Below, piece after piece: positions 26,012 through 47,626 of a stretch of DNA of 64,000 bases. The stretch covers positions 144,355 to 208,354 of the forward strand of contig JAQTUX010000002.1 in NCBI GenBank assembly GCA_028707125.1, in the 5' to 3' direction. The notes beneath the pieces were generated by a model that had not been told where the DNA came from, did no database searches, and worked only from the letters and a program-made list of their open reading frames with translations. Position 1 is the first letter of the stretch. Each line of letters begins with the position of its first letter. The DNA is from Candidatus Omnitrophota bacterium. GTDB lineage: Bacteria > Omnitrophota > Gorgyraeia > Gygaellales > JAQTUX01. The position numbers and the translations under genes are program-made.

Positions 26012-26675
26012 AAAATTCACCGAAAACAGTGCAGGGGGCGCTGTCAACGCCCTTTATAAATAATGGGACCGCGTATACAGCCCTCAGATCATCAAACCTG
26101 CCTTCAAGATTCAAGCCCTCTATTAAAAACAATGGGCCGCCGGGGAAACCATCTTCCTTTAACAATATCCCGTGGGCCTGCCTTCCGGCCTCGCGGTTTT
26201 GGAAGGCGGAAAATGAGATCGCGTCTATGCCGGCCGCCTTGAGAAAGGGATATTCCGATCTAAGCAGCCTTGCCGCTTCAGCGGATATGCCGGGATTATG
26301 CTTCATATATTTCTCATCCTTCCTGTATTTATAAAACCCCGTCCTGAATAGAACCAGGTCGCATCCATCTGGTATCCCGCGCACATCATCCTCGGATATC
26401 AACTCGTCCTTATCCTTCGGGCGATCTATGATATGCGGACGGCTGAAAATAAAATCGGTTATTGGAAATTCCGCTATCGGCCTGCCCGTATCATAAAAAT
26501 GCCTGGGCGCGTCAATATGAGTGCCGGCATGGTTTGAAAGACCGACCTCAAATGTGTTGCAGGAGTCATTTCTCTTTATCTGTTTGTCCGGTTTTATTTC
26601 AAATAACCCGGCTCCGCCGTAGAAGGGCATGCCCTCTTCTAATGGATACGATAGCAATCTATACTTTCCGGCCAT
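25995..26675 (-). CDS. Cyclase-family protein (putative metal-dependent hydrolase, kynurenine-formamidase-like).
   Basis: The HxGTHxDxPxH motif is present as SNHAGTHIDAPRHF. 226 aa. Confidence 0.6.
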   Translation of the reverse strand: MAGKYRLLSYPLEEGMPFYGGAGLFEIKPDKQIKRNDSCNTFEVGLSNHAGTHIDAPRHFYDTGRPIAEFPITDFIFSRPHIIDRPKDKDELISEDDVRGIPDGCDLVLFRTGFYKYRKDEKYMKHNPGISAEAARLLRSEYPFLKAAGIDAISFSAFQNREAGRQAHGILLKEDGFPGGPLFLIEGLNLEGRFDDLRAVYAVPLFIKGVDSAPCTVFGEFYEKTN

Positions 26676-27303
26676 TGATCAATTTTTCCAGATCAAACAT
26701 ATCATTAATAAGCGAATCTGCCTCTAATCCTGAAAAACGTTGTCCCTCCCGTACCCGGCCGATAAACCTGATGCCCGCCTTTTGCGCCGCCTCATGATCA
26801 TCTATGGAATCGCCTACAAAAACCGCCTCTCGCGCAGCTAAGCCGTATTTCTCAAGGACCCCAGAAATCAGGTTCTGCTTTTTAGCGGGCGAACCAAAGA
26901 CCTCGCAAAAAAATTTCTCCAATCCGCGCTCCTTTACAATAAAGGCGATCTCTTCCTGCGGAGTGCCCGAAACAACAAACAGCGATATCTTTTTATAATA
27001 CTTGGCTAAAAATTCCTGAGCGCCTTTAACAAAGGGGCATCTTATTACCTCCTGGCACACATAGTCCTTGAATTTAATGCCAAGTTCCTCGCTCAACCCT
27101 TCAGAAAAAGGCAGGCGGAGGATATTCTTGTAAATATGCTCAAACTTTTCAAAGCGCGATATGCCGCCGTGAAGCAAGTGCCACTCAACGATAGCGTCTA
27201 TGTGCCGGGGATAATCCTTGAATAAATGAGCGAACGCCCTCGTCTTTATATCCACCGACTCCACGATGACGCCGTCAAAGTCAAAAATAACCGCCTTAAT
27301 CAT
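26659..27303 (-). CDS. HAD-superfamily hydrolase or phosphatase (beta-phosphoglucomutase-like subfamily).
   Basis: The DxDGV motif appears as VIFDFDGVIVES. The C-terminus has VFVGDSIDDHEAAQKAG. Confidence 0.75.
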   Translation of the reverse strand: MIKAVIFDFDGVIVESVDIKTRAFAHLFKDYPRHIDAIVEWHLLHGGISRFEKFEHIYKNILRLPFSEGLSEELGIKFKDYVCQEVIRCPFVKGAQEFLAKYYKKISLFVVSGTPQEEIAFIVKERGLEKFFCEVFGSPAKKQNLISGVLEKYGLAAREAVFVGDSIDDHEAAQKAGIRFIGRVREGQRFSGLEADSLINDMFDLEKLINGRKV

Positions 27304-28184
27304 GCCACCTTCTCGCCGACGTCTTTTGATATCTCCTCAATGCACTCAAGCAGGCCGGCTCCGAGGTCGATGAACTGGTCGCTGACCAGCTTCCTCCCCG
27401 GCTCAGGCTTCTTATAGTTATAGTTTGTGAGCTTGTAATGGGTCTCGTTGTCTTTGCGGGTATATACTACCTCTATTTTGTTGCCCAGCATCTCGTTTAT
27501 CATATCCAGGATATCCCTGTAGCGCATGGGATAATTGCCCGTTAACATGATATTCTTATTCTCATATTCCGGGGCGAGCACCTTAACGCTCAGCGCCGCG
27601 GCGTCTCTGGCATGTATATATTCTCTTACCTCATCACCGCTCCCATGATAGGTTATCTTCCCGGTTGAGACCGCCTCCTTCAGGATCTTGTAGATACTAT
27701 TGCCGGCGTTGGCCCTGTCTCCGTAAAGCGAACCGTATCTCAAAATAGTATAGGGCAGGCCGTATTTTTCGTGATAGCTGTGTATAAATAACTCACAGGC
27801 CTGCTTGCTGCTCTTGTAAAAAGAACCGTAGTTGCTGTATACATAGCTAGAGCTGGCGAAAAGGTACCTTCTGATCTTCGCTGATTTGGCCGCTTCTAAG
27901 ATCACGGAATTACCCATGACGTTATATCTTGCCACCTCCAGCGGCTTTACCGCGCATTCGTCTATATCGGATATGGCGGCGAAATTATAGGCGATCTCGC
28001 AGCCATCCAGGGCCTTATTGACCAGCGCCTCATCCAGGATGTCTCCGACTACCATTTGCTGCTTTTTATTCAAATACCTGGATTTCTTCAGGTCGTATAT
28101 CGTGACCTCATGCCCCTTTTCGCTAAGCATATCCGCGACATGGCTGCCTAAGAAACCCGAACCGCCGAATACCACGATCTTCAT
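27300..28184 (-). CDS. NAD-dependent nucleotide-sugar epimerase/dehydratase or reductase (extended SDR).
   Basis: MKIVVFGGSGFLGSHV and a YxxxK motif (YKSSKQACE). 294 aa. Confidence 0.75.
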   Translation of the reverse strand: MKIVVFGGSGFLGSHVADMLSEKGHEVTIYDLKKSRYLNKKQQMVVGDILDEALVNKALDGCEIAYNFAAISDIDECAVKPLEVARYNVMGNSVILEAAKSAKIRRYLFASSSYVYSNYGSFYKSSKQACELFIHSYHEKYGLPYTILRYGSLYGDRANAGNSIYKILKEAVSTGKITYHGSGDEVREYIHARDAAALSVKVLAPEYENKNIMLTGNYPMRYRDILDMINEMLGNKIEVVYTRKDNETHYKLTNYNYKKPEPGRKLVSDQFIDLGAGLLECIEEISKDVGEKVA

Positions 28185-28185
28185 T

Positions 28186-29094
28186 TTATTCCTCCTCCAA
28201 ACCTTTTATAAGATTCTTAACGGCCTGTAACTCCATATCAATCCTTGCCTCCCGCGCGTAGGAACCGGCGTGAGGCGTAAGAATAACGTTATCAAGATCC
28301 CTTAACTGGCCGGTATACGGCTCCTGCTCAAAGACGTCGATAGCCGCCCCTGATAAATATCCCGACTTGAGCGCCTGGTAAAGGGCGTCGTGATCCACCG
28401 CCCCACCCCGGGACAGATTCAACAGGTATGAGCCCTTCTTCATGGTCCGGATCTCCGCCTGGCCGATAATCTGCCCGGCAAAAGAGGCGTGGACGGACAC
28501 GATATCAGCCCATGCGAGCAGTTCATCCAATGCCGCCCTCTTAAAACCGCGTATGCCGTCGTCCTTCTGCGGATCGGTATATCTTATCTCGCAGCCAAAG
28601 CCATTCAATAGCTGCGCCACCCTGCTCCCGATACTCCCGAACCCCACTATCCCCACTTTTTTTCCGCAAAGCAGATTGCCTGTTATCTTTTTCCAGCCGC
28701 CGCTTCTTATCGCGCTGTCCATGGGAACTATCCGTCTTAAAAGGGCGATGGCCAGGCCAACCGTCAATTCGGCGACCGCCAGAGCCGGCGCATCGGGCGT
28801 GTTGTATATCTTGATCTTAAGCCGTTGTGCGGCGCGCGTGTCTATATTGTCCAGGCCCGCTCCGCAGCGGGAAATGACCTTAAGGCCGGGTAAGCCCTTA
28901 AGGACCTCCTCGTCAAACATCTCGGTTCCGGCTATAATACCGCAGGCGCCTTTACAGATACCGCCGATCTCTTCCTTCTTTAATTTCCTCCCCAAAGAAT
29001 TCATCGTTATCTGAAAACCCCCGCCCCTGAGCAGGATGACCGGCTCTTCGCTGCCCTGCCCAAAGGTCGTGGTGGTAATGGCCACTTTTTTCAT
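28186..29094 (-). CDS. D-isomer-specific 2-hydroxyacid dehydrogenase-family NAD-dependent oxidoreductase.
   Basis: GIVGFGSIGSRVAQLL NAD-binding motif with an overall PGDH-like layout. 302 aa. Confidence 0.7.
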   Translation of the reverse strand: MKKVAITTTTFGQGSEEPVILLRGGGFQITMNSLGRKLKKEEIGGICKGACGIIAGTEMFDEEVLKGLPGLKVISRCGAGLDNIDTRAAQRLKIKIYNTPDAPALAVAELTVGLAIALLRRIVPMDSAIRSGGWKKITGNLLCGKKVGIVGFGSIGSRVAQLLNGFGCEIRYTDPQKDDGIRGFKRAALDELLAWADIVSVHASFAGQIIGQAEIRTMKKGSYLLNLSRGGAVDHDALYQALKSGYLSGAAIDVFEQEPYTGQLRDLDNVILTPHAGSYAREARIDMELQAVKNLIKGLEEE

Positions 29095-29106: not shown

Positions 29107-30843
29107 TCAGAGAAAGCTTGCCAGTCTTTCATCGGTGATCTCCGAAAAATAATCACTAATATAACCCCTGTTGTAATCCTCTGTTTCTTTGGTTTCCGCG
29201 GCGCTTTTTGCCGGATCCCGATTATAATATATATTCAAATAATCTTTGAATCCCTCCACTGAGCTGACCACTATTTTATTCCGCTTATAACCGAATAAAC
29301 GGTCTGTATTATACATCTGCCCGTTAAGCGCGAAATATCCCACAGTGATATTGTGTTTCAGCGCCTCAATGCACAGGGTATTATCGTCATAAAGCAATAT
29401 GTCTATCTCTTTGAATATGTCCTGCCAGGGGATGCCCCTGGCATCAATAAAGTTTTCAGGCAGCATATGCCCGAAATCTATATTGTGGACAAAATCCGGA
29501 TGAAATTTAAGATAGACGGTATATTCACTGCTGTCAAAGATCCGCATAAGATGAAATAAAATCGTCTCATAATTTTTAAAATCGAAAGAGAAGGCGTAGG
29601 CGACCTTTTTAGCCGAGCCCATCCTGCCGGTAAACGGCTGCCCGCGGAAAAGATGCTGGTAACGCAGGCCGCAGCCCTCCTCCACGATACCGGGGGCAAA
29701 ATGCCCCCTGGCCTCCATCGTGTCTTTCAATATCCTGCCCCCCGTAAATATCTTGTCCGGCATAAAGGCGGCCCCCTTTTCATGCCTGCCGGGAAAATAC
29801 TGCAGGAGCTTGTAAGATACGCTTGAATGTTGAAAAGCGGTCAATTTTACAGGCGAAGACATCTCATTCCTGGCTGATATAAATGCCTTTTCCCAGGGAT
29901 GATTCTCAAAAGGATAGAATATCCTGCCTATTGAAAACCTGCTTAAGATATCTTTGGCAAAAAAGTAATCCAGATACGCCTTGATCCAGCCCAGGCCGTA
30001 AAAATCTTCCCTTAAGGACAGCCGCGCCAGAGCGGATATATCATACCCCTTGAACAGCATCCCGCCTGCGATCTTCGGCCTTTTAGAAATTCCGTACACC
30101 AAAGATAAAAATAAATCTTTAAATGTCAAATACCTGTAATTCACGGTATTCCTGTAAGGGGTACGGGTTCTGGATATGTCAAAATAATGCCGTAAAATGA
30201 CATTTATCTTGTTGTGGTGCATGATCTGATTGAATACCATAATACGCTTGCCTTTTGCGGCCAGCCATTTCAGGAGCGGGTCAAAATATTCATCCCTGTG
30301 CCCGCCCTCCTGATAAGAGCGGTAATCGCAAAATGAATAAAACGCGCAGTCAAATGCCGCCTCATGCGGTATCTTAAAGAAAAACCTTGAACTGACGATG
30401 GCAAAGGTATTGACTATAATGACCTTGACGGCGTCGCGGATAAACTTCATGCCCGCGGCCAGGCCGAATAACTTCAAACGGTATGGATTATAGCCGACCT
30501 CGATGCCCCTGCCCGCGGCATAGGCGATCAAGGCCCTGATAACTTTATAGTCAAGATTATTAAAGACGATGTTCTCCCCTGTTTTATCAATGAGTTCAAG
30601 GCAATAGATGAACCTGCAGACCTTGTCATAAAACAAAGTCATCCCCTCTATCCTGGTAAGAGTAGGCGATACCAGATATTCTATGGCGCTGCTATTCCTG
30701 CCAACGACCTCAGAGAATAAATCATTGTATTCCCATATATCGTCCTCTTTTATGCAGGGGATATCGGAAACCCTGATCTTGCCGATATCCACGGCCCTAT
30801 AGCGCTTATCCTGACTGTCTTTTAATATCTTCAGCGTAAACAT
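29107..30843 (-). CDS. Hypothetical soluble protein, possibly a GT-B ulosonic-acid (sialyl/Kdo-type) transferase-like enzyme.
   Basis: 578 aa. I recognise no family. It contains a KFHPDF HP motif of the kind found in bacterial sialyl- and Kdo-transferases. The call is speculative. Confidence 0.3.
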   Translation of the reverse strand: MFTLKILKDSQDKRYRAVDIGKIRVSDIPCIKEDDIWEYNDLFSEVVGRNSSAIEYLVSPTLTRIEGMTLFYDKVCRFIYCLELIDKTGENIVFNNLDYKVIRALIAYAAGRGIEVGYNPYRLKLFGLAAGMKFIRDAVKVIIVNTFAIVSSRFFFKIPHEAAFDCAFYSFCDYRSYQEGGHRDEYFDPLLKWLAAKGKRIMVFNQIMHHNKINVILRHYFDISRTRTPYRNTVNYRYLTFKDLFLSLVYGISKRPKIAGGMLFKGYDISALARLSLREDFYGLGWIKAYLDYFFAKDILSRFSIGRIFYPFENHPWEKAFISARNEMSSPVKLTAFQHSSVSYKLLQYFPGRHEKGAAFMPDKIFTGGRILKDTMEARGHFAPGIVEEGCGLRYQHLFRGQPFTGRMGSAKKVAYAFSFDFKNYETILFHLMRIFDSSEYTVYLKFHPDFVHNIDFGHMLPENFIDARGIPWQDIFKEIDILLYDDNTLCIEALKHNITVGYFALNGQMYNTDRLFGYKRNKIVVSSVEGFKDYLNIYYNRDPAKSAAETKETEDYNRGYISDYFSEITDERLASFL

Positions 30844-31775
30844 TTTTCTTTCTGTTTGGCGATACCCACCGGTTGATACCTGGGCTCATAGATCCCAAAA
30901 GGCAGACCGCTATCGGCTGTGCCGAGATAATACCTGGAGACCCTCTTTTTTATCTCGTTGGAATCCTTTAATTTTTTAAACAGGTTGTCATAATCGACAA
31001 AATTTGCCGGACAGCCGTCTAAGGCGAATATCTTCCTTATGGAATCCTCGCAAAAACACCAGCCCCGCGCAGGATGAAAATACCAGTCCTTGTCCTTTGC
31101 CGCGCTGACGGTTAAAAACATATACGCCGACTTCTTCAAGATACGGTTAAATTCCCCCGCTGCCTTGCTGATATCCGCGTGGTCGGCATGTTCAAGCGCG
31201 GAAACGGAGATAATACAATCCAGCTCCCCATCCGCAAACTCCTTCAGATTCGTAAAGTCCCCCAGGACACGCACTATCTTTCCGTAGGCGTTGCTGCCGA
31301 ACCTGGACTTGAATGCCTCCTTCCACATATTCAGGTTAATATAGGTGGGCGCGAATTCATAAACGAGATATTTTATAATACCCTTAACACCCCAATCCGG
31401 CTTCTTTTTCTTATGGCTTATAAATTTTCTATAACGGTGTTCAAAATTATCCAGACCGTGCCTGCGCTGTTCCACATTGAAGATCATGCCTGCCGCGGGC
31501 GGCAGGTCCCTTTCCGCGAAATCCAGACTAATGACGTTGTATCCGCGCGCCGCCAGAATAAACTGCAGCACGCCGTTACCTGCCCCGGCATCCATTATCC
31601 ATGAACCCCTGGGCAGTTTGATCTTTTCTAAATGATCCAATATCCATATAAAATCCAGCCAATAATGCCAGCCCATCGGATAATGGGTCACGCCTGCCCA
31701 GTATTCGACCAGCTTAAGTTTATCCGGGTGATCTTTCATAAGGTCAGCGCTAAGTATCTCTATCTTATCCTGCAT
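30831..31775 (-). CDS. Class I SAM-dependent methyltransferase.
   Basis: Motif I is WIMDAGAGNGVLQFILAARGYNVISLDF. 314 aa. Confidence 0.7.
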   Translation of the reverse strand: MQDKIEILSADLMKDHPDKLKLVEYWAGVTHYPMGWHYWLDFIWILDHLEKIKLPRGSWIMDAGAGNGVLQFILAARGYNVISLDFAERDLPPAAGMIFNVEQRRHGLDNFEHRYRKFISHKKKKPDWGVKGIIKYLVYEFAPTYINLNMWKEAFKSRFGSNAYGKIVRVLGDFTNLKEFADGELDCIISVSALEHADHADISKAAGEFNRILKKSAYMFLTVSAAKDKDWYFHPARGWCFCEDSIRKIFALDGCPANFVDYDNLFKKLKDSNEIKKRVSRYYLGTADSGLPFGIYEPRYQPVGIAKQKEKCLR

Positions 31776-31781
31776 GATCTT

Positions 31782-33308
31782 TTACTCCGTAGGTACGGGC
31801 GCCTTCAAACGCGTAAGCCGCTGCATAAATAGGTAAGATGACGCCAGAAGCCGCGTAAATACCCTGCGCCTCCCTATAAAGACCACTAACCTGTTTGTAA
31901 AGAACCTGTAGAACGCATTATGAAAGCGCCTTAACGAATGCGACCTCTTCATAAAGTAGATGATCATGGAGCAGACCGTGTAATAATCAGCGCGGTGTAT
32001 CTCTTCCAACTGGTTTAATCCGGCTCCAGCCAGATAGCGAAGATATGTGTCTTCCTTTATCAGTCCTGCCTTCCTGGCCATTTCATAGAGGGCAGTGCCT
32101 GGGAAATGGACCAGAGGGAAAAACCTGATATTGAAAAACGGGTCTATCCTGTGAACAAAATCCAGTGTTTCGCGCGTGCTGCTTGCCGGCTCCATTTCAT
32201 TACAGACGATCAAATGCACAAAACAGGACCTTACCTTATCCTTATAGGACCTGATGACCTCCAGCACCTCATAGACCTTTTCGATCTTCATATGCCGCTG
32301 ATACATATCCCTGTTTGTTCGGTCGCAAGCGGTCTGGACCCCTATCAGGCATTCCACGGCTCCGGCATCCACCAATAATTTGAACTTATCCTCATTAAAC
32401 GCCGAAGGGGTAAACTCTATTTTAAAAGGCAGGTTGATCCTTGACTTGTATAAGCCGGCAAATTGCTTGATGAAATCCAGCGGTTGGGCAAAAAGGTCCT
32501 CATCGCTTAAAAAGATATAATTAATGAAGGGATGCCTTTTCAATACCGCCTCGATCTCCCTGATAACATTCTCCGCGCTTTTTCTCCTGGAACTTATCCC
32601 GCCGTAGAGCTGCTGCAGGCCGTTATTACAGCAGTAGGCACAGCGATAAGGGCATCCTCGCGACGTTGCCACGTAATAATCAATGCGGCCTCCCCAGGTA
32701 TTGCCGCTGGTCATATATTTCTTCATCAATTCCGGCGTTATCCGCTTTAACGCCCCTTCTTCCACTATCAGATGCGACTGAAAATCATTATCAGGATAGG
32801 GCAGGCTGTCCAGGTCTTTCAGCAATGGACGCAGGGGGTTCTCCTTGATGGCCTCATTTCCGTTACCATCGTGTGTGCGGACCCAAAGGTTCTTGATATC
32901 GGAGTAATCCTCTCCTCTGGAAACACGCTCCATTAACTCCAGCAGGGCCTCCTCTGATTCGCCGCGGGAAATGATATCCGCTTCTTTGATACAGCCCTCC
33001 GGGAATAAGCTGGGGTGCACGCCGCCCCAGACAATGGGTTTACCCAATTTCCTGATCTTCTTTGTGGCCTTTGCCGCCTCTAAATGATAGTTTGAGGTCA
33101 CCGACAGGCCGATCAGATCGGAATCACTGCAGGCATCCATTACCTGTTCATACACGCTGTCGGGGAAGATATCGAGAAAACGGTCATAAGGAGAAAGCAT
33201 ATAAATGATCTGCGCCTGGTGGCCCCTGGCCTTCAAGTAGGCGCTGAGGCTGGTAATGCCGACCGTATTGAGCTGATAGGTATAAAAGATCAAACTGACT
33301 TTAGCCAT
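31782..33308 (-). CDS. Cobalamin-binding (class B) radical SAM enzyme, paralogue 6 of 7.
   Basis: 508 aa. The N-terminal B12-binding domain includes KVSLIFYTY...IVWGGVHPS. Radical SAM motif: TSRGCPYRCAYCC. Confidence 0.85.
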   Translation of the reverse strand: MAKVSLIFYTYQLNTVGITSLSAYLKARGHQAQIIYMLSPYDRFLDIFPDSVYEQVMDACSDSDLIGLSVTSNYHLEAAKATKKIRKLGKPIVWGGVHPSLFPEGCIKEADIISRGESEEALLELMERVSRGEDYSDIKNLWVRTHDGNGNEAIKENPLRPLLKDLDSLPYPDNDFQSHLIVEEGALKRITPELMKKYMTSGNTWGGRIDYYVATSRGCPYRCAYCCNNGLQQLYGGISSRRKSAENVIREIEAVLKRHPFINYIFLSDEDLFAQPLDFIKQFAGLYKSRINLPFKIEFTPSAFNEDKFKLLVDAGAVECLIGVQTACDRTNRDMYQRHMKIEKVYEVLEVIRSYKDKVRSCFVHLIVCNEMEPASSTRETLDFVHRIDPFFNIRFFPLVHFPGTALYEMARKAGLIKEDTYLRYLAGAGLNQLEEIHRADYYTVCSMIIYFMKRSHSLRRFHNAFYRFFTNRLVVFIGRRRVFTRLLASSYLFMQRLTRLKAPVPTE

Positions 33309-34002
33309 TTTTTACCCTCGCTTGCCGTTTAAGCACCCCCGACTTGAAGATCGATTCCGCCATCCGGAAATCCTCTTCTTCGTCAATATCTATCGCCTCG
33401 ATCCTGTTCATTTTATACAGATACGGTTTCAAGCCGATCCTGCGGCCCTTATTTTCAAAACTGCTTCTGGAAAAAATGTAAAAGTTTGAATTCTCTTCAT
33501 ATACGGGAGAAAGATCCTGGGTGCGTATAAGCCTGCGGGGATCATGATTAAGAGGATGGAAATCATCATCATAGAACCTCGCCCTGTGCTCTGTCACGGA
33601 AAACAATGAATCATATCCGTCTTTTAAAGAGGCAAAGTATGTTTTCACAGCATCCTCTATTGTGGCCGGCATTAAAAGCGGGTTTGTGCTATGTGTCTGC
33701 AGGAAGTGCTCTCCCTCCAACAGCGAAATATCGTGGCCGATGATCTTATTCATGGAAACATGGTCGCCGCTAAGGCGGACAGGCCTGTCTATGAGCAGGA
33801 CTGAAGGATAGCCGCTTTTAATGAGCTGTTTGATCTTCCCGCTGTCTGTATCCACTACTATCGCCTCAACGCAGTTTACCTTCAACAGCGCGTCAAATAT
33901 CCTGTGGAACAGCGGCCTTCCGCAGAAATCGCGTATATTCTTATTCGGCACCCTCTCGCTGTGTCCCCTCATCGGGACCAACACCTTAATCTTCACAGCC
34001 AT
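33301..34002 (-). CDS. CMP-ulosonic-acid cytidylyltransferase, of the acylneuraminate cytidylyltransferase (NeuA/KdsB/CTP_transf_3) family. This is the second such gene in the locus.
   Basis: VLVPMRGHSERVPNKNIRDFCGRPL is the typical N-terminal motif of this family. 233 aa. Confidence 0.7.
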   Translation of the reverse strand: MAVKIKVLVPMRGHSERVPNKNIRDFCGRPLFHRIFDALLKVNCVEAIVVDTDSGKIKQLIKSGYPSVLLIDRPVRLSGDHVSMNKIIGHDISLLEGEHFLQTHSTNPLLMPATIEDAVKTYFASLKDGYDSLFSVTEHRARFYDDDFHPLNHDPRRLIRTQDLSPVYEENSNFYIFSRSSFENKGRRIGLKPYLYKMNRIEAIDIDEEEDFRMAESIFKSGVLKRQARVKNG

Positions 34003-35059
34003 GGAATCCCCTTTTCAATAATTTAAGGAGCCCGCTCTTTATTCTGGAGGCGGACCTTATCAGCCTGCCTGCCCTGCTTTTGTTCATGCTCAGGCGTTTT
34101 TCTTCCAACTGTTTCAGCGTACTTATGATAGTAAAATAATTATTTGAAAGATCGAGGCCGCAGACATGAGACGGCTGGCACCGGAACAGGCTGCGCACGT
34201 ATTCGTCACCCGCGATGAATTTAAAACCCAACGGCTCTATGACGGAACGCAGGGAAAGAAGGTTAAAATTATAATTATGGACAAAGGCCGAATAAACTAT
34301 ATAGTTATAATCGTAGTCCTTTAAGTAACAGACGCCGGGGACCTCGACATATAAATACCCGCCCTCTTTGACAAGGGGCTTGATCTTGTTAAACTCGCTT
34401 TTTATATCGCCGAAATGCTCAACCACATGGCTCAAGATCACGATATCCGCCTTTTTCCCGGCTAATGACTCTGCCAGCCCCTTATAAACATCAATGCCTC
34501 TGCTACGGGCCATCTGCGAGGCATCTTCCGAAGGTTCGCAACCGCATACATCTACAGCGATCCCGTCTTTTTCCAGCAGGTTCCTGACCTTGTCCAATAA
34601 AGCTCCCCTGCCGCAGCCGATCTCTATGATCTCAAGGCGCCTGCCCGCCTCTTTACGCGTAACGTATCTGTCCAGATATTCGTATATCTTTTCGGCAGAA
34701 TCGGGTTTGACCGTCATCAGGTCCCTTATTGACTCGCCCAATATCAGGTCATAGTAAACCTTCTCATAGAATTCCGGCAGGTCATTGAAAGAAAGCCGGG
34801 GTGATACCTGGATCAGGCCGCATTGCCTGCAGATCTTTGTCCCGAATGGCAGTACGAACCTGTCCTGCACGCTCAAGACCTCAAGGTCATCAGAGCCGCA
34901 GAGGCATTTCTTAACGTGCTCCAGGCGGTATTTACCGTCAAAGATATACTTCAACAATGTAAAATAGGCCCTGCGCCTTTTCGGGTCCAGCTTAAAGCCG
35001 TAATAAAAAGGAAATTCAACCGCTGCCTGTCCGGACGTTTTGTCTTTCATTGCCATCAT
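33986..35059 (-). CDS. Class I SAM-dependent methyltransferase with an N-terminal C4 zinc-ribbon.
   Basis: CLCGSDDL...CRQCGL, then motif I RRLEIIEIGCGRGALLD. I trimmed the start to the ATG at 35059, which forms an ATGA overlap with the TGA stop of the upstream gene. The ORF track extends it to 35119. Confidence 0.7.
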   Translation of the reverse strand: MMAMKDKTSGQAAVEFPFYYGFKLDPKRRRAYFTLLKYIFDGKYRLEHVKKCLCGSDDLEVLSVQDRFVLPFGTKICRQCGLIQVSPRLSFNDLPEFYEKVYYDLILGESIRDLMTVKPDSAEKIYEYLDRYVTRKEAGRRLEIIEIGCGRGALLDKVRNLLEKDGIAVDVCGCEPSEDASQMARSRGIDVYKGLAESLAGKKADIVILSHVVEHFGDIKSEFNKIKPLVKEGGYLYVEVPGVCYLKDYDYNYIVYSAFVHNYNFNLLSLRSVIEPLGFKFIAGDEYVRSLFRCQPSHVCGLDLSNNYFTIISTLKQLEEKRLSMNKSRAGRLIRSASRIKSGLLKLLKRGFHGCED

Positions 35060-36237
35060 ACCTGTTTCAGGCGATTTGCCAGTATCTGCCAAAGGGGCAG
35101 ATTTTCCGACCAATCGCACTTAAGAAATTGCTGCCGGTAATGCCGATAATGCGGCTGGCTGACCTTCAATTCGTTTTCCCAGTCGATCTTCGATTCCTTA
35201 TCTATATACACCGCCCTTTTACCGTGCAACTGGGCCAACACTTCAATAAACTTGCTGTCCTGCATGCCGTCGTACGCGAGAAAGACAACCGGCTTTAGAA
35301 AAAGATTTGCCAGGCTGACAGCGGTGCTGGATTGGGTCAACACCAATTTCGCTTCCCTTATCAGCTCTGCGGTCTTGCCCTTGATACACTTGCGCCCTTT
35401 ATAATAATCCGGCAGTTCATCGTAACGGGAACGCGGATGGGCCGCGATAACAACCTCGAGTTTCAAGTCCCTCTCTACCGCGCCAAAAAAATCGTCGAGA
35501 AGCCCGTAATACCTGTCTATATCATAATTGCTCTTCACGCCTTCATAAAAATAATTCCAGTCCAGCGCCGGACAGATGTCCAGAAATACCGCGATATCGC
35601 GCTCCCGCGATGTCTTTTTTGACTCCTCAAGATAAACGTCGTAATCAAGGTTGTGTCCCCAGACCAATTCCGTATTTTTACCCAGCGGCAGCCGATGCTT
35701 GTTGACCGAGCCTTCGCCGCCGGCCATAAAAAACCGCGCCGGTTTTACGCCGAACAATCCAAGCGGCAGCAGGGGCAGTATCAATCTCTTATAAAGCCCT
35801 GAAGGAGTATGCCGCGACAATGACTTTAATTTTCTCATAATGACGGAAGCGCGCCTATGCCCGTTGAGCCGGTCAATGTCCCTCACGTCCGGCATGGCGT
35901 TGAGCAGCGCCACGATATATTCCGCCTTTGCCCTGCTTATTACCCTGTATAGATCGAGCAGCTTGAATTGAAAGGTTATGGCGTCAAAGATCACGCTATC
36001 CTGATCCAGATCCAATAATTGGCCATATAATGTCTTCGCGTCGTAAAAGAACTTCGTCCCCTTAAAGTCAACGTAATCCGAGGCCTTGTATTGCTTAAAG
36101 AGCTCCGGATGCAAGAAAGGTGTAATATCCCAATACTCCACCTTAAAACCGTTATCTTCCAGCGTCTTTATGCCGTAACGCCGGAAATTCCATTCGTTCA
36201 GGTTCTGCCTGGCCAATATTATTATATTTTTTATCAT
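35056..36237 (-). CDS. Hypothetical protein, possibly a GT-B ulosonic-acid (sialyl/Kdo-type) transferase-like enzyme.
   Basis: 393 aa. It has an HP motif (AAHPRSRYDELPDYY) followed about 33 aa later by TQSSTA. This spacing resembles the HP and S motifs of bacterial sialyltransferase and KpsS-like enzymes. It has no strong family match otherwise. Confidence 0.35.
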   Translation of the reverse strand: MIKNIIILARQNLNEWNFRRYGIKTLEDNGFKVEYWDITPFLHPELFKQYKASDYVDFKGTKFFYDAKTLYGQLLDLDQDSVIFDAITFQFKLLDLYRVISRAKAEYIVALLNAMPDVRDIDRLNGHRRASVIMRKLKSLSRHTPSGLYKRLILPLLPLGLFGVKPARFFMAGGEGSVNKHRLPLGKNTELVWGHNLDYDVYLEESKKTSRERDIAVFLDICPALDWNYFYEGVKSNYDIDRYYGLLDDFFGAVERDLKLEVVIAAHPRSRYDELPDYYKGRKCIKGKTAELIREAKLVLTQSSTAVSLANLFLKPVVFLAYDGMQDSKFIEVLAQLHGKRAVYIDKESKIDWENELKVSQPHYRHYRQQFLKCDWSENLPLWQILANRLKQV

Positions 36238-36998
36238 TTAATCTTTTTTATCTTCTTGATCAGTTCTCTGCAGGTATGTCCCAGGAATAACGTATCAAGG
36301 CTGAATGCCAGGAACCTGTATCCTTCATCGATCTTCTCTGTAAGCAGCTCCGCCTGCGGAGGTATCAGGTGGAATCCGGCTGTCTTTTTCATATCCCTGG
36401 CGACCTTCATAATGCGCGCCAGGGCGGCCTTAACCCGCGGATGCTCAAACTCTCCAGGCCTGCCGATAGAACCTGAAAGGTCATAGGGTCCGACGATAAA
36501 CCCGTCCACGCCTTCAACCTTCAGTATTTCCTCCAGATTATCCACCGCCTTGATGTGCTCTATCTGCGCGATCACCACGCTGCCCTTATTAACCCAATTC
36601 TTATACTTCTCAAATCCCATCCCATACCCCTGAGCCCTGGCAAGGCCCACCCCTCTTCTTCCTTCCGGAGGGTATCTGACGGCGCTTACCGCCGCAACCG
36701 CGTCCTCTTTGCTGTTTACCATAGGGACGATCACGCCGTGAGAACCGGCATCCATAACTCGCTTGATAAGGACCGGGTTGTTTTCGCCCACCCTTACCAG
36801 AGGCAGGCAGCCGGACAATTCGATTATCTGGATAAGCGCCTGGGCCTGATCAAGTGTTATCGCGCTGTGCTCCATATCTACTGTCAACCAGTCAAAGCCC
36901 GCCCTGGCCATGATCTCCGCGATTGAAGCATGGCCCACGGTGATCCAGGAACCCACGGTAAGAAGCCCTTTTCTTAATCTCTCTTTTAGGTCTATCAT
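36234..36998 (-). CDS. HpcH/HpaI-family class II (metal-dependent) pyruvate aldolase.
   Basis: 254 aa with a TIM-barrel aldolase layout: LRVGENNPVLIKRVMDAGSHGVIVPMV...PEGRRGVG...VIAQIE. Confidence 0.75.
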   Translation of the reverse strand: MIDLKERLRKGLLTVGSWITVGHASIAEIMARAGFDWLTVDMEHSAITLDQAQALIQIIELSGCLPLVRVGENNPVLIKRVMDAGSHGVIVPMVNSKEDAVAAVSAVRYPPEGRRGVGLARAQGYGMGFEKYKNWVNKGSVVIAQIEHIKAVDNLEEILKVEGVDGFIVGPYDLSGSIGRPGEFEHPRVKAALARIMKVARDMKKTAGFHLIPPQAELLTEKIDEGYRFLAFSLDTLFLGHTCRELIKKIKKIK

Positions 36999-40347: not shown

Positions 40348-41559
40348 TCAATCGTCTACGCCGCCGCCCCAGACCGTATGCCTTAGCCCCCACTCATTGT
40401 TGACCTTGGTCCATACATGAGGCGATAACGACCTGTAAAAATCGACTACTTCGTGAAATTCTTCTTCGGTTATACCGAGATATCTCAAAAACCATTGAAA
40501 ATACTTCTTCGGGAAAGCCCCGTCGTAACGCTTGACAAGGGCAACCCCTTCCTCGCGGGTAATATGGCCGTCCCTGATCTCATGCGCGGCATCCGAGGTG
40601 GCCCTGGCGATACCGAACTTCATGTAAGCAAGATAAAAATGGAAACCGTCCTGCTTATCATCCAGGCTGGCATACTTGGAATAGGTCCCTTCTGAATGTT
40701 CGGGGTTAGGCTTAAATCCGGTATTCTCTACACAATAATAATAATTTTCCTGCGGGACCCATTTCTTGTAAAAGGAAAACCAATGCATCTGCGCCCCTAT
40801 CTTGCTCAACTCTTCCAGTTCCGGCGGCCTATACAAGCGGAATGAATCAGCGTTTATCTCCTCCTTCTTGAAGACCCCCGCCTCTAAGCCATGCCGGATC
40901 AGATCGTCTATGCCGGAACCCTTATAATAAAGTTCTTGCCAGTCCTCAGGCCTCTCATAGGCATTCTTGATATTTTTGCTGGACCCGCCGTATTCGATCT
41001 CTCCGCTTTCGCCATAAAACATCAAAGGGATCTTAAACCTTACCGCCATCTGAAACGCATATGCCTTTTGCCCATAGGCAAAGGGCTCCCACGCGTCACC
41101 CAGAAGCTCGAAGGACAATCTGGATAATTTTCTATGTAAAACACCATCGGGAAAGCATAATAAATTATCAAAACCGGAATCTTTAAAACTCAAATAATTC
41201 TGCCAACCGATATCCGTGTACTCAAAAGGGGCCCAGGTCACGGTCAAAGGATGCATGCCGTATTTATATTTCAGTTGGTGCGCGACGTAACCGGAATCCT
41301 TGCCTCCGCTGCCGGGGACAATACAATCATAGCTCCCGTCCTTTGAACGGTACCTGTTCAGCAGATCAACGAGCATCTTCTCTCTTTCTTTCCAATCTAT
41401 CGTGTTATGTTTCAAGTACGCATAACGACAGGCGCTGCAAACGCCATTCTCGTCAAAAGTGATCCTCGGCCTCTGATTCGAAACAACGCAGCTTTTGCAG
41501 AATCTGGTCTCTTTTGGAAGTCTGCCCAGCTGTTTATCTAACGTTTTTCTGAATAACAT
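40348..41559 (-). CDS. N-acetyl-sugar amidotransferase (PP-loop ATPase, WbuX/PseA-like) that makes an acetimidoyl (acetamidino) group.
   Basis: N-terminal zinc-ribbon (CKSC...CSAC) and PP-loop SGGKDS. The next two genes downstream are a HisH/HisF-like pair, as in the wbuXYZ arrangement. Confidence 0.7.
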   Translation of the reverse strand: MLFRKTLDKQLGRLPKETRFCKSCVVSNQRPRITFDENGVCSACRYAYLKHNTIDWKEREKMLVDLLNRYRSKDGSYDCIVPGSGGKDSGYVAHQLKYKYGMHPLTVTWAPFEYTDIGWQNYLSFKDSGFDNLLCFPDGVLHRKLSRLSFELLGDAWEPFAYGQKAYAFQMAVRFKIPLMFYGESGEIEYGGSSKNIKNAYERPEDWQELYYKGSGIDDLIRHGLEAGVFKKEEINADSFRLYRPPELEELSKIGAQMHWFSFYKKWVPQENYYYCVENTGFKPNPEHSEGTYSKYASLDDKQDGFHFYLAYMKFGIARATSDAAHEIRDGHITREEGVALVKRYDGAFPKKYFQWFLRYLGITEEEFHEVVDFYRSLSPHVWTKVNNEWGLRHTVWGGGVDD

Positions 41560-41589
41560 GCCCTGCCTCCAATGTGCCGGATAAAAAAA

Positions 41590-42234
41590 CTACATCTTAA
41601 GGAAATTCTCAAATATTTTTAAACCGCCTCTGGCGCTCTTTTCCGGATGGAACTGGCATCCCCATATATTATCTTTGCAAAGTACGCTGCAGAATCTATC
41701 CTTGCCATATTCCGACTCCGCTATTATGTTGTTATCTTCATTCGGCGAACAGATAAAAGAATGCACGAAATAGAAATGGCTCCCGTCGGCAACATCCCTT
41801 AAAATAGACCTGCCCGGATTCAAAGCGCCCTCCTTAAAATAAATTTCTCTCCAGCCAACGTGAGGGATCTTAAACGAATTATCCTTTTCCGGTTTCTCCA
41901 GGATCCGGACTCTTCCCTTTATTAAATTCAGGCCGTTGCAAAGACCGAATTCATCGCTTTCGCTCATAAGCAGCTGCATACCTAAACAGATACCCAATAA
42001 TGGCCTGCCGCTTCCAGAAAATTCACAGATCGCATCGCTTAAGGACCTGTCTTTTAACTCGCGCATCCCCTCACGAAAGGCGCCCACTCCCGGCAATATC
42101 AATCTTTGCGCGGAGCGGACTTTCACAGGGTCGCCGGTGATCTCGGTTTCGCCTCCGATATAGGCCATCGCCCTTTCAATACTGAAGAGATTGCCCATTC
42201 CATAATCAACTATGGTGGCCTTATTATTGTTCAT
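41590..42234 (-). CDS. hisH: Imidazole-glycerol-phosphate-synthase HisH-like glutamine amidotransferase subunit (WbuY-like).
   Basis: Class I glutaminase triad region LLGICLGMQLL...HVGW...CQFHPEKS. 214 aa. Confidence 0.8.
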   Translation of the reverse strand: MNNNKATIVDYGMGNLFSIERAMAYIGGETEITGDPVKVRSAQRLILPGVGAFREGMRELKDRSLSDAICEFSGSGRPLLGICLGMQLLMSESDEFGLCNGLNLIKGRVRILEKPEKDNSFKIPHVGWREIYFKEGALNPGRSILRDVADGSHFYFVHSFICSPNEDNNIIAESEYGKDRFCSVLCKDNIWGCQFHPEKSARGGLKIFENFLKM

Positions 42235-43118
42235 TATGGATTAACCGCTCCCTGCAGCATGCACCTGCAACTGACCCCTGCTTCGCTCAGTCTCTTTTTC
42301 ACTTCTGCTATAGAATCGGGCTTGATCCTGTTAGGCATAAAATTCAAACTGCCTCTGCTCCTCTTTATAAACTCTATATTGCCTTCTTCTTTAAAATCAA
42401 CGGGGTCGATATCCCGCTCCATATATTGATAGTGGAAAATAGACGCCGCGCTTACAGCATCGGCATGCCCATGCCTTATGGCCTCCAGGATATGCTCAAA
42501 TTTACCGCATCCTCCGCAGGCAATGACCGGTATGGGCGACTCTTTCGCTATCGGGCTTACCAGACCTAAATCATACCCTAAGCCGGTGCCTTCATTATCA
42601 AGGGAAGTCAAAAGGATCTCTCCCGCGCCCAAGGCGACTACTTCCTTTGCCCAATTAAACACCTCTTTGCCGCTCGCCTCTCTTCCGTTGTCGGTCATGG
42701 CTATATATGCATTATTGATCAGTTTTGCCTGAATAGATACCACGATACACTGAGAACCGAACGTCTCGGCCGCTTCCCGGATAAAATCCGGGTTATGGAT
42801 GGCCGCCGTATTGATAGCGACTTTATCGGCTCCGGAGCGCAATATCCTCTTGATATCCTCAATCGACCTTATGCCGCCGCCTACTGTCAGAGGAATAAAG
42901 ATATTTTTTGCGGTCTTCTCTACGATCTCTAAAAGATTATTCCTTCCGTAAAGGCTGGCAACCGCGTCTATGTAGATCAACTCATCCGCTCCGTCCAGAT
43001 AATACTTACAGGCGAAATCCCACGGCTTTCCCAAAACGCGCAGGCCTTCCAGATGAATGCCCTTGACTAAGTTAGGGCCCTTGATATCCAGTCTCGGTAT
43101 AATCCTCACATTAGCCAT
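42234..43118 (-). CDS. hisF: HisF-like cyclase subunit (WbuZ-like) with a C-terminal extension.
   Basis: (beta/alpha)8 HisF motifs: RIIPRLDIKGPNLVKG...TVGGGIRS...GADKV...GAGEILLTS. Its stop shares one nucleotide with the hisH-like start. Confidence 0.8.
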   Translation of the reverse strand: MANVRIIPRLDIKGPNLVKGIHLEGLRVLGKPWDFACKYYLDGADELIYIDAVASLYGRNNLLEIVEKTAKNIFIPLTVGGGIRSIEDIKRILRSGADKVAINTAAIHNPDFIREAAETFGSQCIVVSIQAKLINNAYIAMTDNGREASGKEVFNWAKEVVALGAGEILLTSLDNEGTGLGYDLGLVSPIAKESPIPVIACGGCGKFEHILEAIRHGHADAVSAASIFHYQYMERDIDPVDFKEEGNIEFIKRSRGSLNFMPNRIKPDSIAEVKKRLSEAGVSCRCMLQGAVNP

Positions 43119-43119
43119 A

Positions 43120-43860
43120 TCAGACCGCGGTCCACCCTCCGTCTACGACAAGGTTGTGCCCCGTTACATAGCCCGACGCGTCGGATGCCAGGTATATTGC
43201 CGCTCCCGCTATATCAACCGCCTTTGCCATCCTTCCCAGAGGGGTCTTGTCTGAATATCTTTTCACAAAGGCATCCGCCTGCCTGTCGCGCACACCGCCC
43301 GGAGAAATACAATTAACCCTGACCCCATGCCCGCCGTAGTAGGAAGCGAGGTATCTCGTGAAAGCGATTATTCCGCCCTTAATAGCGGAATAGGCTCCGG
43401 GGCAGGTCATTTTGGTATTCTTATAAATAGAGAAATCCGGCCCGACCATGCCATAAATAGAAGCAAGGTTAATAATGGACCCGCCTCCCTTCTTTTTCAT
43501 ATACTCGGCGGCATTCCGGCAGCAGATAAAATACCCGTTAAGGTGCGTATCGATATTCTTTCTCCAGGACGATACCGGCACATCCTCAAACTTCAAGGCC
43601 CAATCGCCGGTCCTGGGATAAGCGCTGTTGACCCATATATCCATACGGCCATATTTCTTATCCACAAACTTGATCAAAGAAGAGACCGACCGCTCATTGG
43701 CGATATCCACATGCCGGCCGGCGTTTTTATTGATATCGGCGGCCACAACAGAGGCGCCAAATGCCGACAGGCCGCGCGCTATTTCCTTTCCAATCAACCC
43801 CGCGCCCCCCGCTACAACCGCTACCTTGCCTTTCAGGCAGAAAAGATCATCGTATTTCAT
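43120..43860 (-). CDS. Short-chain dehydrogenase/reductase (classical SDR), possibly a PtmA-like accessory enzyme of the nonulosonic acid module.
   Basis: KVAVVAGGAGLIGKEIA glycine-rich motif and YSAIK (YxxxK). Confidence 0.75.
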   Translation of the reverse strand: MKYDDLFCLKGKVAVVAGGAGLIGKEIARGLSAFGASVVAADINKNAGRHVDIANERSVSSLIKFVDKKYGRMDIWVNSAYPRTGDWALKFEDVPVSSWRKNIDTHLNGYFICCRNAAEYMKKKGGGSIINLASIYGMVGPDFSIYKNTKMTCPGAYSAIKGGIIAFTRYLASYYGGHGVRVNCISPGGVRDRQADAFVKRYSDKTPLGRMAKAVDIAGAAIYLASDASGYVTGHNLVVDGGWTAV

Positions 43861-44581: not shown

Positions 44582-44583
44582 AT

Positions 44584-47622: not shown

Positions 47623-47626
47623 ATCC

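Follow-up and report, generated by a model that had tools for sequence, protein, structure and literature searches.

An HpcH-family pyruvate aldolase paired with a CMP-ulosonate-type cytidylyltransferase as the probable core of a NeuB-independent acidic-sugar cassette

Introduction

[quoted passage not shown] A surface-glycan locus of a Candidatus Omnitrophota bacterium raises the question of whether such a sugar can also be made without a synthase of this kind. The stretch analyzed here, hereafter the window, comprises 64,000 nucleotides (assembly GCA_028707125.1, contig JAQTUX010000002.1, forward-strand positions 144,355 to 208,354) and encodes, apart from a Leg-type module, an HpcH/HpaI-family class II aldolase (ALD) and a second cytidylyltransferase (CYT2), which a first-pass annotation had proposed to be parts of a pyruvate-dependent route to a second, CMP-activated ulosonic acid. 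A search of the full-text literature returned no report in which HpcH aldolases are connected with cytidylyltransferases or with the making of ulosonic acids. Based on gene content, sequence conservation and genomic context, we consider it probable that ALD and CYT2 constitute the core of a conserved, horizontally mobile cassette, through which a second acidic sugar is produced and activated without the NeuB-based Leg module.

Results

Identity of the aldolase and the cytidylyltransferase

ALD (254 amino acids, aa) matches the Pfam HpcH_HpaI family (PF03328) over positions 3-215 of the 221 in the profile, at 125.7 bits (cut-off 25), and its nearest solved structure is that of the Escherichia coli 2-keto-3-deoxy sugar aldolase YfaU (2vws, E = 5e-48). 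Residues H44, R69, E147 and D173 of ALD align with the catalytic histidine and arginine and with the two acidic metal ligands of YfaU, which we take to be numbered 49, 74, 153 and 179 in that enzyme, and all four are 100% conserved across 169 sequences of the ALD clade. Because this tetrad is both invariant and aligned with the YfaU active site, ALD looks catalytically competent. The protein nonetheless falls below every NCBIfam equivalog cut-off, scoring 192 bits on the HpaI model (cut-off 369), 173 bits on GarL (407) and 170 bits on RhmA (441), and scores so far under the cut-offs indicate that ALD is not an orthologue of a characterized catabolic aldolase. Hence, while ALD has the Pfam family and the catalytic His, Arg, Glu and Asp in common with YfaU/RhmA, HpaI and GarL, it differs from YfaU and HpaI at several clade-invariant residues, such as Y172 and H210, and its genomic context is entirely unlike the catabolic settings of these enzymes. 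Q123 and Y125 likewise count among the invariant positions peculiar to the ALD clade. Solved HpcH homologues matching ALD also include 6r62, deposited as a "hydroxyketoacid aldolase". PEP mutase and HpcH enzymes belong to one clan, and a phosphonate pathway was for this reason considered; it was rejected, ALD being YfaU-like with an aldolase tetrad and no phosphonate genes having been seen.

CYT2 (233 aa) matches the Pfam CTP_transf_3 family (PF02348) at 85.4 bits (cut-off 22.6). Among NCBIfam models, PseF is the nearest to CYT2 (98.7 bits, below its cut-off of 205.7), KdsB models score at most 38.8 bits, below their cut-offs of 155-281, and no dedicated NeuA model was among the matches. Its P-x-R-G-x-S-x-R-x-x-x-K-N (PmRGhSeRvpnKN) and D-I-D-x-x-x-D (DIDeeeD) motifs align with those of NeuA (9ftb) and of CYT1, the cytidylyltransferase of the Leg-type module. 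CYT1 and CYT2 are 25% identical and are therefore not recent duplicates. The first-pass annotation had identified an HpcH-family class II aldolase and, 2 kb from it, a second member of the NeuA/KdsB family; both assignments hold, with CYT2 lying nearest to PseF and far from KdsB. A role for CYT2 as the housekeeping KdsB of lipopolysaccharide (LPS) synthesis was rejected, since the protein is NeuA/PseF-like and travels with ALD.

Reciprocal conservation of the aldolase-cytidylyltransferase pair

A protein search with ALD returned thousands of homologues. The best 120 are 65-75% identical to ALD, except for one at 99%, and the carriers named among them include Omnitrophota, Patescibacteria, a "Candidatus Wunengus" metagenome-assembled genome (MAG), Thermodesulfobacteriota, a Peptococcaceae bacterium, Hadarchaeum, Methanococcoides and Promethearchaeota. 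Scanning species-representative genomes with ALD yielded 78 loci, each flanked by up to 10 kb per side (loci are designated by L and a number), in which open reading frames were called, compared to all window proteins and clustered. Two sets were defined on these loci: 48 ALD-clade loci, with an aldolase at least 46% identical to ALD, and 20 distant loci, with an aldolase at most 43% identical. Cultivable organisms among the carriers are Algoriphagus sp. SE2 (L050) and Methanococcoides sp. AM1 (protein P0105), with Rikenella microfusus, the species to which the MAG of L038 is assigned, as a further candidate.

A CTP_transf_3 gene is found at most three genes from the aldolase in 46 of the 48 ALD-clade loci, and directly adjacent to it in 32. 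The exceptions are a contig truncated just upstream, near-identical relatives of which carry the gene, and a locus in which the gene lies four genes away. By contrast, no CTP_transf_3 gene occurs anywhere in the locus in any of the 20 distant loci (46/48 versus 0/20; Fisher's exact test, P = 2.8e-15, which overstates independence, as the loci share ancestry). The co-location of ALD and a cytidylyltransferase is thus far beyond chance. The link is also reciprocal: a metagenome scan with CYT2 returned 80 loci (51-65% identity), and among the 52 that had at least 2.2 kb downstream and were counted, ALD is found within 1.5 kb of the CYT2 orthologue in 46 and within 150 bp in 38.

These distributions bear directly on the reading that the two genes are coincidental neighbors, with ALD acting as a catabolic or central-metabolic aldolase and CYT2 as a surplus CMP-Leg or CMP-Kdo synthetase that works for canonical synthases encoded elsewhere. 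The best NCBIfam matches of ALD are HpaI, GarL and RhmA, and its homologues bear these names in databases, yet these matches lie far under the equivalog cut-offs, the pairing is reciprocal and spans many phyla, and homologues of at most 43% identity are never accompanied by a nearby cytidylyltransferase (0/20). Furthermore, no hpa, gar or rhm catabolic partner is present among the frequent neighbor families of the 48 loci, which, like the window, consist of glycan-biosynthesis genes. The aromatic-catabolism context that the first-pass annotation had named as grounds for abandoning its proposal was not seen, aldolases of at least 46% identity being located in surface-glycan loci, and we regard mere coincidence as very improbable.

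Gene order and identities to window proteins match in two Dehalococcoidia MAGs (L023 and L024) and in a "Nitrososphaeria archaeon" MAG (L025). L023 and L025 originate from one SPRUCE study, and the agreement looks like a binning conflict or a very recent transfer; L025 was left out as evidence for archaeal carriage.

Two cytidylyltransferase lineages and a replacement aldolase

The cytidylyltransferase that accompanies ALD in the 48 loci belongs to either of two unrelated lineages. CYT2-type partners (about 230 aa, 41-58% identical to CYT2) usually lie just upstream of ALD, and KdsB-like partners (about 260 aa) immediately downstream of it (e.g. L006:2906-3685). The KdsB-like partner scores 318.6 bits on an NCBIfam KdsB subfamily model (NF009905), above the cut-off of 255, and presents 19% identity to CYT2 over 118 aligned N-terminal residues. 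It adjoins ALD in L004, L005, L006, L046 and 20 other loci, amounting to half of the 48, and does so even in Hadarchaeia, one Peptococcaceae genome and one Moraniibacteriota genome. These three groups generally lack LPS, and the automatic annotation "Kdo cytidylyltransferase" is probably misleading in their ALD loci. Both partner lineages fall in the family that activates 2-ulosonic acids.

In two metagenome loci of identical layout (L148 and L151), the gene after the CYT2 orthologue encodes a 536-aa HMGL-like protein, and the next one a HAD phosphatase. Among NCBIfam models, the HMGL-like protein is best matched by 4-hydroxy-2-oxovalerate aldolases of the DmpG type, below cut-off, and it carries an extra C-terminal half of about 260 aa. 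On these matches, L148 and L151 represent a predicted non-homologous replacement of ALD by another metal-dependent class II pyruvate aldolase, and would define a minimal set composed of a cytidylyltransferase, a pyruvate aldolase and a phosphatase. Together, the existence of two cytidylyltransferase lineages and of a DmpG-type replacement suggests that it is the chemistry that is conserved, and not the genes alone.

Accessory genes and the place of the 2-hydroxyacid dehydrogenase

The most constant third partner of the cassette is a 2-hydroxyacid dehydrogenase (2HDH), present in 41 of the 48 loci and often encoded directly after ALD. Its nearest solved structures, 3-phosphoglycerate dehydrogenase (PGDH; 1wwk) and glyoxylate reductases, provide only a family-level answer, namely similarity to PGDH and to glyoxylate/hydroxypyruvate reductases. 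The other accessory genes of the 48 loci form two alternative modules. Module A, which is the window's, consists of a short-chain dehydrogenase/reductase (SDR) epimerase (EPI), a cyclase-family hydrolase (CYCL) and a HAD phosphatase. The EPI family is present in 30 of the 48 loci, usually within the run 2HDH-EPI-CYCL-HAD, and its nearest solved structures (6wjb/6wj9 and GalE-type 4-epimerases) identify it, at the family level only, as GalE/PelX-like. CYCL, found beside HAD in 17 loci, has a weak NCBIfam arylformamidase match and is related to the metal-dependent hydrolase 1r61 in the Protein Data Bank (PDB), again at the family level only. Module B consists of an IolG-like GFO oxidoreductase and a GmhA-like SIS isomerase, complemented by either an inositol monophosphatase (IMPase)-like phosphatase or an SDR and an AroB-related "sugar phosphate phospholyase" (TIGR04425, above cut-off); two module B loci also encode a NanQ-like, sialic-acid-anomerase-like DUF386 protein.

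Phosphate-removing enzymes are thus encoded in many of these loci (HAD in 19, IMPase-like in 7 and AroB-related phospholyase in 11), and their frequency, together with the aldose-ketose isomerase of some loci, resembles the logic of the Kdo and Kdn-9-phosphate pathways. A stereocenter under poor control by the aldolase could be fixed by EPI where module A is present and by GFO where module B is. The commonest extra neighbors of the ALD-cytidylyltransferase pair are methyltransferases. The B12-binding radical S-adenosylmethionine (SAM) enzyme encoded next to CYT2 in the window, a probable C- or O-methylase, has a similar gene in one related cassette (L080) but is not conserved across the 48 loci. 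The first-pass annotation had grouped the 2-hydroxyacid dehydrogenase, the epimerase, a radical SAM enzyme and two methyltransferases with the pair; all were located as described, and 2HDH and EPI do co-occur widely with it, whereas the radical SAM enzyme and the methyltransferases are only variable accessories.

Two roles for 2HDH are candidates. The enzyme might supply hydroxypyruvate from 3-phosphoglycerate or glycerate, leading to a 3-hydroxylated acid of the D-glycero-D-talo-oct-2-ulosonic acid (Ko) type, an option put forward because 2HDH resembles PGDH and hydroxypyruvate reductase, the HAD phosphatase resembles phosphoglycolate phosphatase (PGP) and 6r62 is described as a hydroxyketoacid aldolase. 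Alternatively, 2HDH might carry out a tailoring step. The constancy of this gene, and its frequent position right after ALD, also lends itself to a different scheme, in which ALD and 2HDH together yield either a phosphorylated 3-deoxy-aldonic acid or a 2,4-dihydroxy acid, and this product is activated with CMP or cytidine diphosphate (CDP) and then polymerized or attached, in teichoic-acid-like fashion, by a TagF-like protein of the GT-B glycosyltransferase fold. An aldolase followed by a 2-oxoacid reductase is chemically straightforward, and a 578-aa GT-B protein of the window, described below, also resembles TagF/TarL CDP-alditol phosphotransferases. CTP_transf_3 enzymes, however, are known to use the anomeric hydroxyl of 2-keto sugar acids such as Kdo, sialic acid and their relatives, and reduction at C2 would abolish this hydroxyl. 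The score of the KdsB-like partner above a KdsB subfamily cut-off, the presence of the sialic-acid-anomerase-like DUF386 in some loci, and the combination in L148 and L151 of aldolase, HAD phosphatase and cytidylyltransferase with no 2HDH within 8 kb likewise speak against a reduced product, and we deem this scheme unlikely.

Probable independence from NeuB

In 38 of the 48 loci, no NeuB gene is found within about 10 kb of ALD. In the remaining 10, NeuB lies mostly beside its own CYT1-like cytidylyltransferase, and two self-contained cassettes (L012 and L018) show no match to NeuB or to the Leg-module aminotransferase. The 25 Pfam families found most often among the 133 unassigned neighbors include methyltransferases, acyltransferases, GT2 glycosyltransferases, flippases and sulfotransferases but not KdsA (DAHP_synth_1). 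Within the window, the only NeuB among the scanned genes is that of the Leg-type module, and no second NeuB was found. This module, with its own NeuB and CMP-synthetase as first annotated, is separate from the ALD cassette and located 6 kb upstream of it. Taken with the pairing observed from both sides (46/48 and 46/52), the absence of NeuB from most loci supports in silico the route originally proposed, by which a 2-keto-3-deoxy sugar acid would be made from pyruvate without NeuB and then activated with CMP. As comparative-genomic evidence, this support is unusually strong and spans many taxa.

The proximity of a complete Leg-type module in the window and the NeuA/PseF-like, rather than KdsB-like, character of CYT2 could also be accommodated if ALD acted downstream of NeuB, equilibrating a nonulosonic acid made by NeuB (Leg in this case) with the corresponding C4 epimer through retro-aldol cleavage and re-addition, and CYT2 activated the epimer, for instance 4-epi-legionaminic acid. 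The aldol reaction of HpcH enzymes is reversible, with poor stereoselectivity at C4, and 4-epi-Leg occurs in nature with no established origin. Such a route is difficult to reconcile, however, with the 38 loci in which NeuB is not within about 10 kb, with the lack of any NeuB or Leg aminotransferase match in L012 and L018, and with the KdsB-like cytidylyltransferase of half of the loci, and the frequent phosphatase and SIS isomerase genes point instead to sugar-phosphate precursors. We therefore consider C4 epimerization quite unlikely.

Proposed pathway

From the gene identities, the intact active-site residues and the reciprocal pairing, we infer the chemistry of each step, the order of the steps and the nature of the sugar as follows. 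ALD would form the enolate of pyruvate, or of a close 2-oxoacid such as hydroxypyruvate, and add it to the aldehyde group of an aldose, free or phosphorylated, replacing the PEP-dependent KdsA/NeuB step. The resulting 4-hydroxy-2-oxo acid would be a 3-deoxy-2-ulosonic acid of the Kdo/Kdn type, devoid of amino groups. The HAD phosphatase would strip phosphate from the precursor or from the condensation product, in the manner of KdsC or Kdn-9-phosphate phosphatase. CYT2 would then couple the free ulosonate to cytidine triphosphate (CTP), with the release of pyrophosphate pulling the reversible aldol reaction forward and rendering it in effect irreversible, and one or both of the GT-B proteins with His-Pro (HP) motifs encoded in the cassette would transfer the sugar to the glycan. 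EPI and 2HDH would supply or tailor the substrate, whether by setting a stereocenter or by providing hydroxypyruvate from 3-phosphoglycerate or glycerate, while the methyltransferases and the B12 radical SAM enzyme would decorate the sugar.

Several points weigh against this scheme. The loci that support it are not statistically independent, being connected by common ancestry and horizontal transfer, and the near-universal 2HDH lacks an obvious role in a sequence of aldol addition, dephosphorylation and CMP activation. Two loci found with CYT2 and having ample flank (L142 and L150) contain no aldolase in range. A Methanoregula locus (L082; JGI Ga0265296_1000057) encodes 2HDH, EPI, HAD, CYCL and a U393 homologue (see below) together with NeuB, HisF/HisH and several radical SAM genes, and has no HpcH aldolase within 10 kb, indicating that module A is not strictly tied to ALD and may also serve NeuB-type pathways. 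Lastly, aldol additions have modest equilibria, and stereocontrol at C4 is often poor in HpcH aldolases of class II, so that an anabolic role for ALD needs coupling.

A more far-reaching version of the proposal, which we put forward tentatively as possible though somewhat short of probable, is that bacteria, Candidate Phyla Radiation (CPR) bacteria and archaea share a PEP-independent pathway to a CMP-ulosonic acid other than Kdo, Kdn and the known nonulosonic acids. Such an acid may be, for example, a stereoisomer of Kdo or Kdn, a 3-hydroxylated, Ko-type acid derived from hydroxypyruvate, or an omega-deoxy form generated via the AroB-like lyase.

Candidate transferases of the cassette

Two proteins encoded in the cassette are candidates for transfer of the activated sugar. 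The first, U393 (393 aa), has no Pfam or NCBIfam match. Its AlphaFold2 model (predicted local distance difference test score, pLDDT, 93.9) adopts a GT-B fold, the best Foldseek matches of which in the PDB are GT1 glycosyltransferases and UDP-N-acetylglucosamine 2-epimerases. Comparison of the U393 family profile with PDB sequences gave no meaningful match to solved transferases. Across the family, the AAHPRS motif (A265-S270) varies little or not at all. A jackhmmer search of the genome loci for homologues recovered U393 alone, placing it outside the universal cassette. A homologue 46% identical to U393 is encoded in L080, a locus of a related MAG whose layout matches the window's; it lies two genes downstream of ALD and has CYT2 directly after it. 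The gene order in L080 is ALD, a 334-aa protein, a deacetylase, the U393 homologue, CYT2, a 575-aa homologue of the 578-aa protein, 2HDH, EPI, a methyltransferase, a radical SAM enzyme, a methyltransferase, CYCL and HAD.

The second candidate, the 578-aa protein, has a weak NCBIfam match to TIGR04326 ("surface carbohydrate biosynthesis protein", 33.8 bits). Its AlphaFold2 model (pLDDT 91.0) is GT-B-like and yields Foldseek matches to GT1 enzymes, BshA, NeuC, TagF and TarL, H448-P449 is invariant in its family, and homologues are found in the L080 cassette and in seven genome loci. An HP motif is common to CMP-Kdo- and CMP-sialic-acid-dependent glycosyltransferases (PMC10148158). The invariant HP of U393 and of the 578-aa protein is hence a lead that fits CMP-ulosonate donors, in the form of a two-residue motif on modeled folds whose top matches are GT1 enzymes and epimerases, and one or both of these proteins may transfer the CMP-activated sugar.

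Three further proteins of 569-584 aa are encoded on the minus strand of the window (12052-13806, 50219-51931 and 56396-58105), the latter two having no Pfam match. BLAST detected no similarity among the four window proteins of about 570-584 aa and U393, so the four are not obvious paralogues; the three additional proteins may be further, divergent transferases.

Organization of the locus and other features

The window as a whole constitutes a single long surface-glycan locus, with most consecutive genes on the minus strand (Table 1). From the flippase gene at 38569 down to the end of the CYCL gene at 25995, adjacent genes overlap or are separated by gaps of at most 17 bp, an arrangement that suggests a single operon. 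CYT2 and the HAD phosphatase are thus encoded in the same apparent operon as ALD. ALD and CYT2 are 2,231 bp apart, with U393 and a methyltransferase gene between them, and the start of U393 overlaps the stop of ALD by 4 bp. The ALD sequence is also present on a 104-kb Logan contig.

Table 1. Coordinates of the features discussed; positions refer to the window unless a locus is named.
Feature	Coordinates	Strand	Basis
ALD, HpcH/HpaI-family class II (metal-dependent) pyruvate aldolase	36234-36998	-	Pfam HpcH_HpaI
U393, 393-aa GT-B-fold protein, candidate transferase	35056-36237	-	AlphaFold2 model and Foldseek
SAM-dependent methyltransferase, variable accessory (between U393 and CYT2)	33986-35119	-	Pfam Methyltransf_23/12/11
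CYT2, second CMP-ulosonate-type cytidylyltransferase	33301-34002	-	Pfam CTP_transf_3
B12-binding radical SAM enzyme, variable accessory, probable C- or O-methylase	31782-33308	-	Pfam B12-binding and Radical_SAM
SAM-dependent methyltransferase, variable accessory	30831-31775	-	Pfam Methyltransf_11/25/23
578-aa TIGR04326-like GT-B-fold protein, second candidate transferase or polymerase	29107-30843	-	NCBIfam (weak) and model
2HDH, D-isomer-specific 2-hydroxyacid dehydrogenase	28186-29094	-	Pfam 2-Hacid_dh_C and 2-Hacid_dh
EPI, extended-SDR NAD-dependent epimerase/dehydratase	27300-28184	-	Pfam Epimerase and related families
HAD-superfamily phosphatase, phosphoglycolate-phosphatase-like	26659-27303	-	Pfam HAD_2/Hydrolase; NCBIfam PGP-like
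CYCL, cyclase-family (PF04199) metal-dependent hydrolase	25995-26675	-	Pfam Cyclase
Leg-type module, whole	43120-50222	-	
NeuB, Leg-type module	49206-50222	-	
NeuC-like enzyme, Leg-type module	48064-49209	-	
Acetyltransferase, Leg-type module	47627-48067	-	
DegT aminotransferase, Leg-type module	46492-47622	-	
PseB/LegB-like dehydratase, Leg-type module	45500-46495	-	
CYT1, cytidylyltransferase of the Leg-type module	43847-44632	-	CTP_transf_3
PtmA-like SDR, Leg-type module	43120-43860	-	
B12-binding radical SAM enzymes (seven)	4338-5810, 9152-10729, 16085-17473, 17445-18980, 24578-26047, 31782-33308, 53901-55439	-	
HMGL-like 536-aa protein replacing ALD	L148:3796-5406 and L151:8657-10267		

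The Leg-type module also includes a GFO oxidoreductase. Directly downstream of it (40348-43118, minus strand) lie genes encoding a WbuX-type N-acetyl sugar amidotransferase (345.6 bits, above cut-off) and HisH-like and HisF-like proteins. Sets consisting of this amidotransferase and HisH/HisF-like proteins make acetamidino groups, and the Leg derivative is thus probably N-acetimidoylated.

The locus encodes seven B12-binding radical SAM enzymes, all on the minus strand, in addition to several SAM methyltransferases, a combination that suggests extensive C- or O-methylation of the sugars of the locus. CMP-activated ulosonic acids with an extended carbon chain have been described in Magnetospirillum (SugarBase preprint, 10.64898/2026.04.20.719630), and B12 radical SAM enzymes like these seven might produce chain-extended ulosonic acids. 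At the end of the locus (1134-4338, minus strand), a flavin adenine dinucleotide-dependent oxidoreductase of the DAO family is encoded beside the alpha and beta subunits of a transketolase-like, thiamine pyrophosphate-dependent E1 dehydrogenase; the products of these genes could provide a sugar with a two-carbon branch or side chain. A 207-aa protein (53081-53704, minus strand) combines a winged-helix helix-turn-helix domain (HTH_24, MarR-like) with a Methyltransf_14-like region resembling the C-terminal domain of sugar C-methyltransferases, and may be a regulator within the locus.

In a related Omnitrophota locus, a 734-aa fusion of a pyruvate kinase barrel, a PUA_2 domain and an ATP-sulfurylase is encoded near ALD (L002:6074-8278), and sulfotransferases and adenosine 5'-phosphosulfate kinase are also found among the neighbors of ALD. 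Together, these genes hint at sulfated glycans at ALD loci.

Discussion

The route proposed here resembles the CMP-Kdo pathway (KdsD, KdsA, KdsC and KdsB) in its overall logic, whereby an aldose phosphate and a three-carbon unit would give an ulosonate phosphate that is dephosphorylated and then activated with CMP, and related ALD loci do hold a KdsB-like enzyme, a phosphatase and, in some cases, an SIS isomerase. The enzymes assigned to these steps nevertheless differ. Condensation depends on PEP and KdsA in the CMP-Kdo pathway, whereas the ALD cassette would rely on an HpcH class II pyruvate aldolase; a PGP-like HAD, an IMPase-like phosphatase or an AroB-like lyase takes the place of KdsC, a GmhA-like isomerase that of KdsD, and the 2-hydroxyacid dehydrogenase is an addition. 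The ALD cassette is, moreover, also found in archaea, CPR bacteria, Chloroflexota and one Bacillota (Peptococcaceae) genome, that is, in groups that generally lack LPS.

Similarly, the cassette is related to the NeuB/NeuA pathways for N-acetylneuraminic acid (Neu5Ac), Leg, Pse and Kdn by CYT2, which is closest to NeuA and PseF, and by its setting in the same type of glycan locus, here beside a true Leg module. Unlike those pathways, the conserved ALD cassette contains no NeuB-family synthase, aminotransferase or acetyltransferase, and its three-carbon donor would be pyruvate instead of PEP. The Kdn pathway, composed of Kdn-9-phosphate synthase and a phosphatase, needs no amino-sugar steps.

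The reaction proposed for ALD does have precedent among aldolases. N-acetylneuraminate lyase (NanA) and Kdo aldolase have catabolic roles, the former being a class I aldolase that works through a Schiff base and has a different fold. Both run the same reaction, in which pyruvate and an aldose are interconverted with a 3-deoxy-2-ulosonate (Kdo aldolase, EC 4.1.2.23; activity cited in PMC12199768). In contrast to these enzymes, ALD is a predicted metal-dependent HpcH enzyme found in biosynthetic loci and tied to CMP activation.

If the proposed route is correct, surveys based on NeuB and KdsA would have missed sugars in Omnitrophota, Dehalococcoidia, Patescibacteria, Hadarchaeia, methanogens and other uncultivated lineages, and thousands of "HpaI/GarL aldolase" or "KdsB" labels would be mis-annotations. 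It would also give a physiological role to the promiscuous aldol chemistry that HpcH enzymes used in biocatalysis perform with pyruvate and hydroxypyruvate, and the natural pair of aldolase and CMP-synthetase would constitute a two-enzyme tool for obtaining CMP-ulosonate donors from cheap pyruvate. Should the product further prove to be other than Kdo, Kdn or a known nonulosonic acid, the cassette would bring to light a new class of ulosonate-synthesizing enzymes as well as a new family of surface sugars in microbes.

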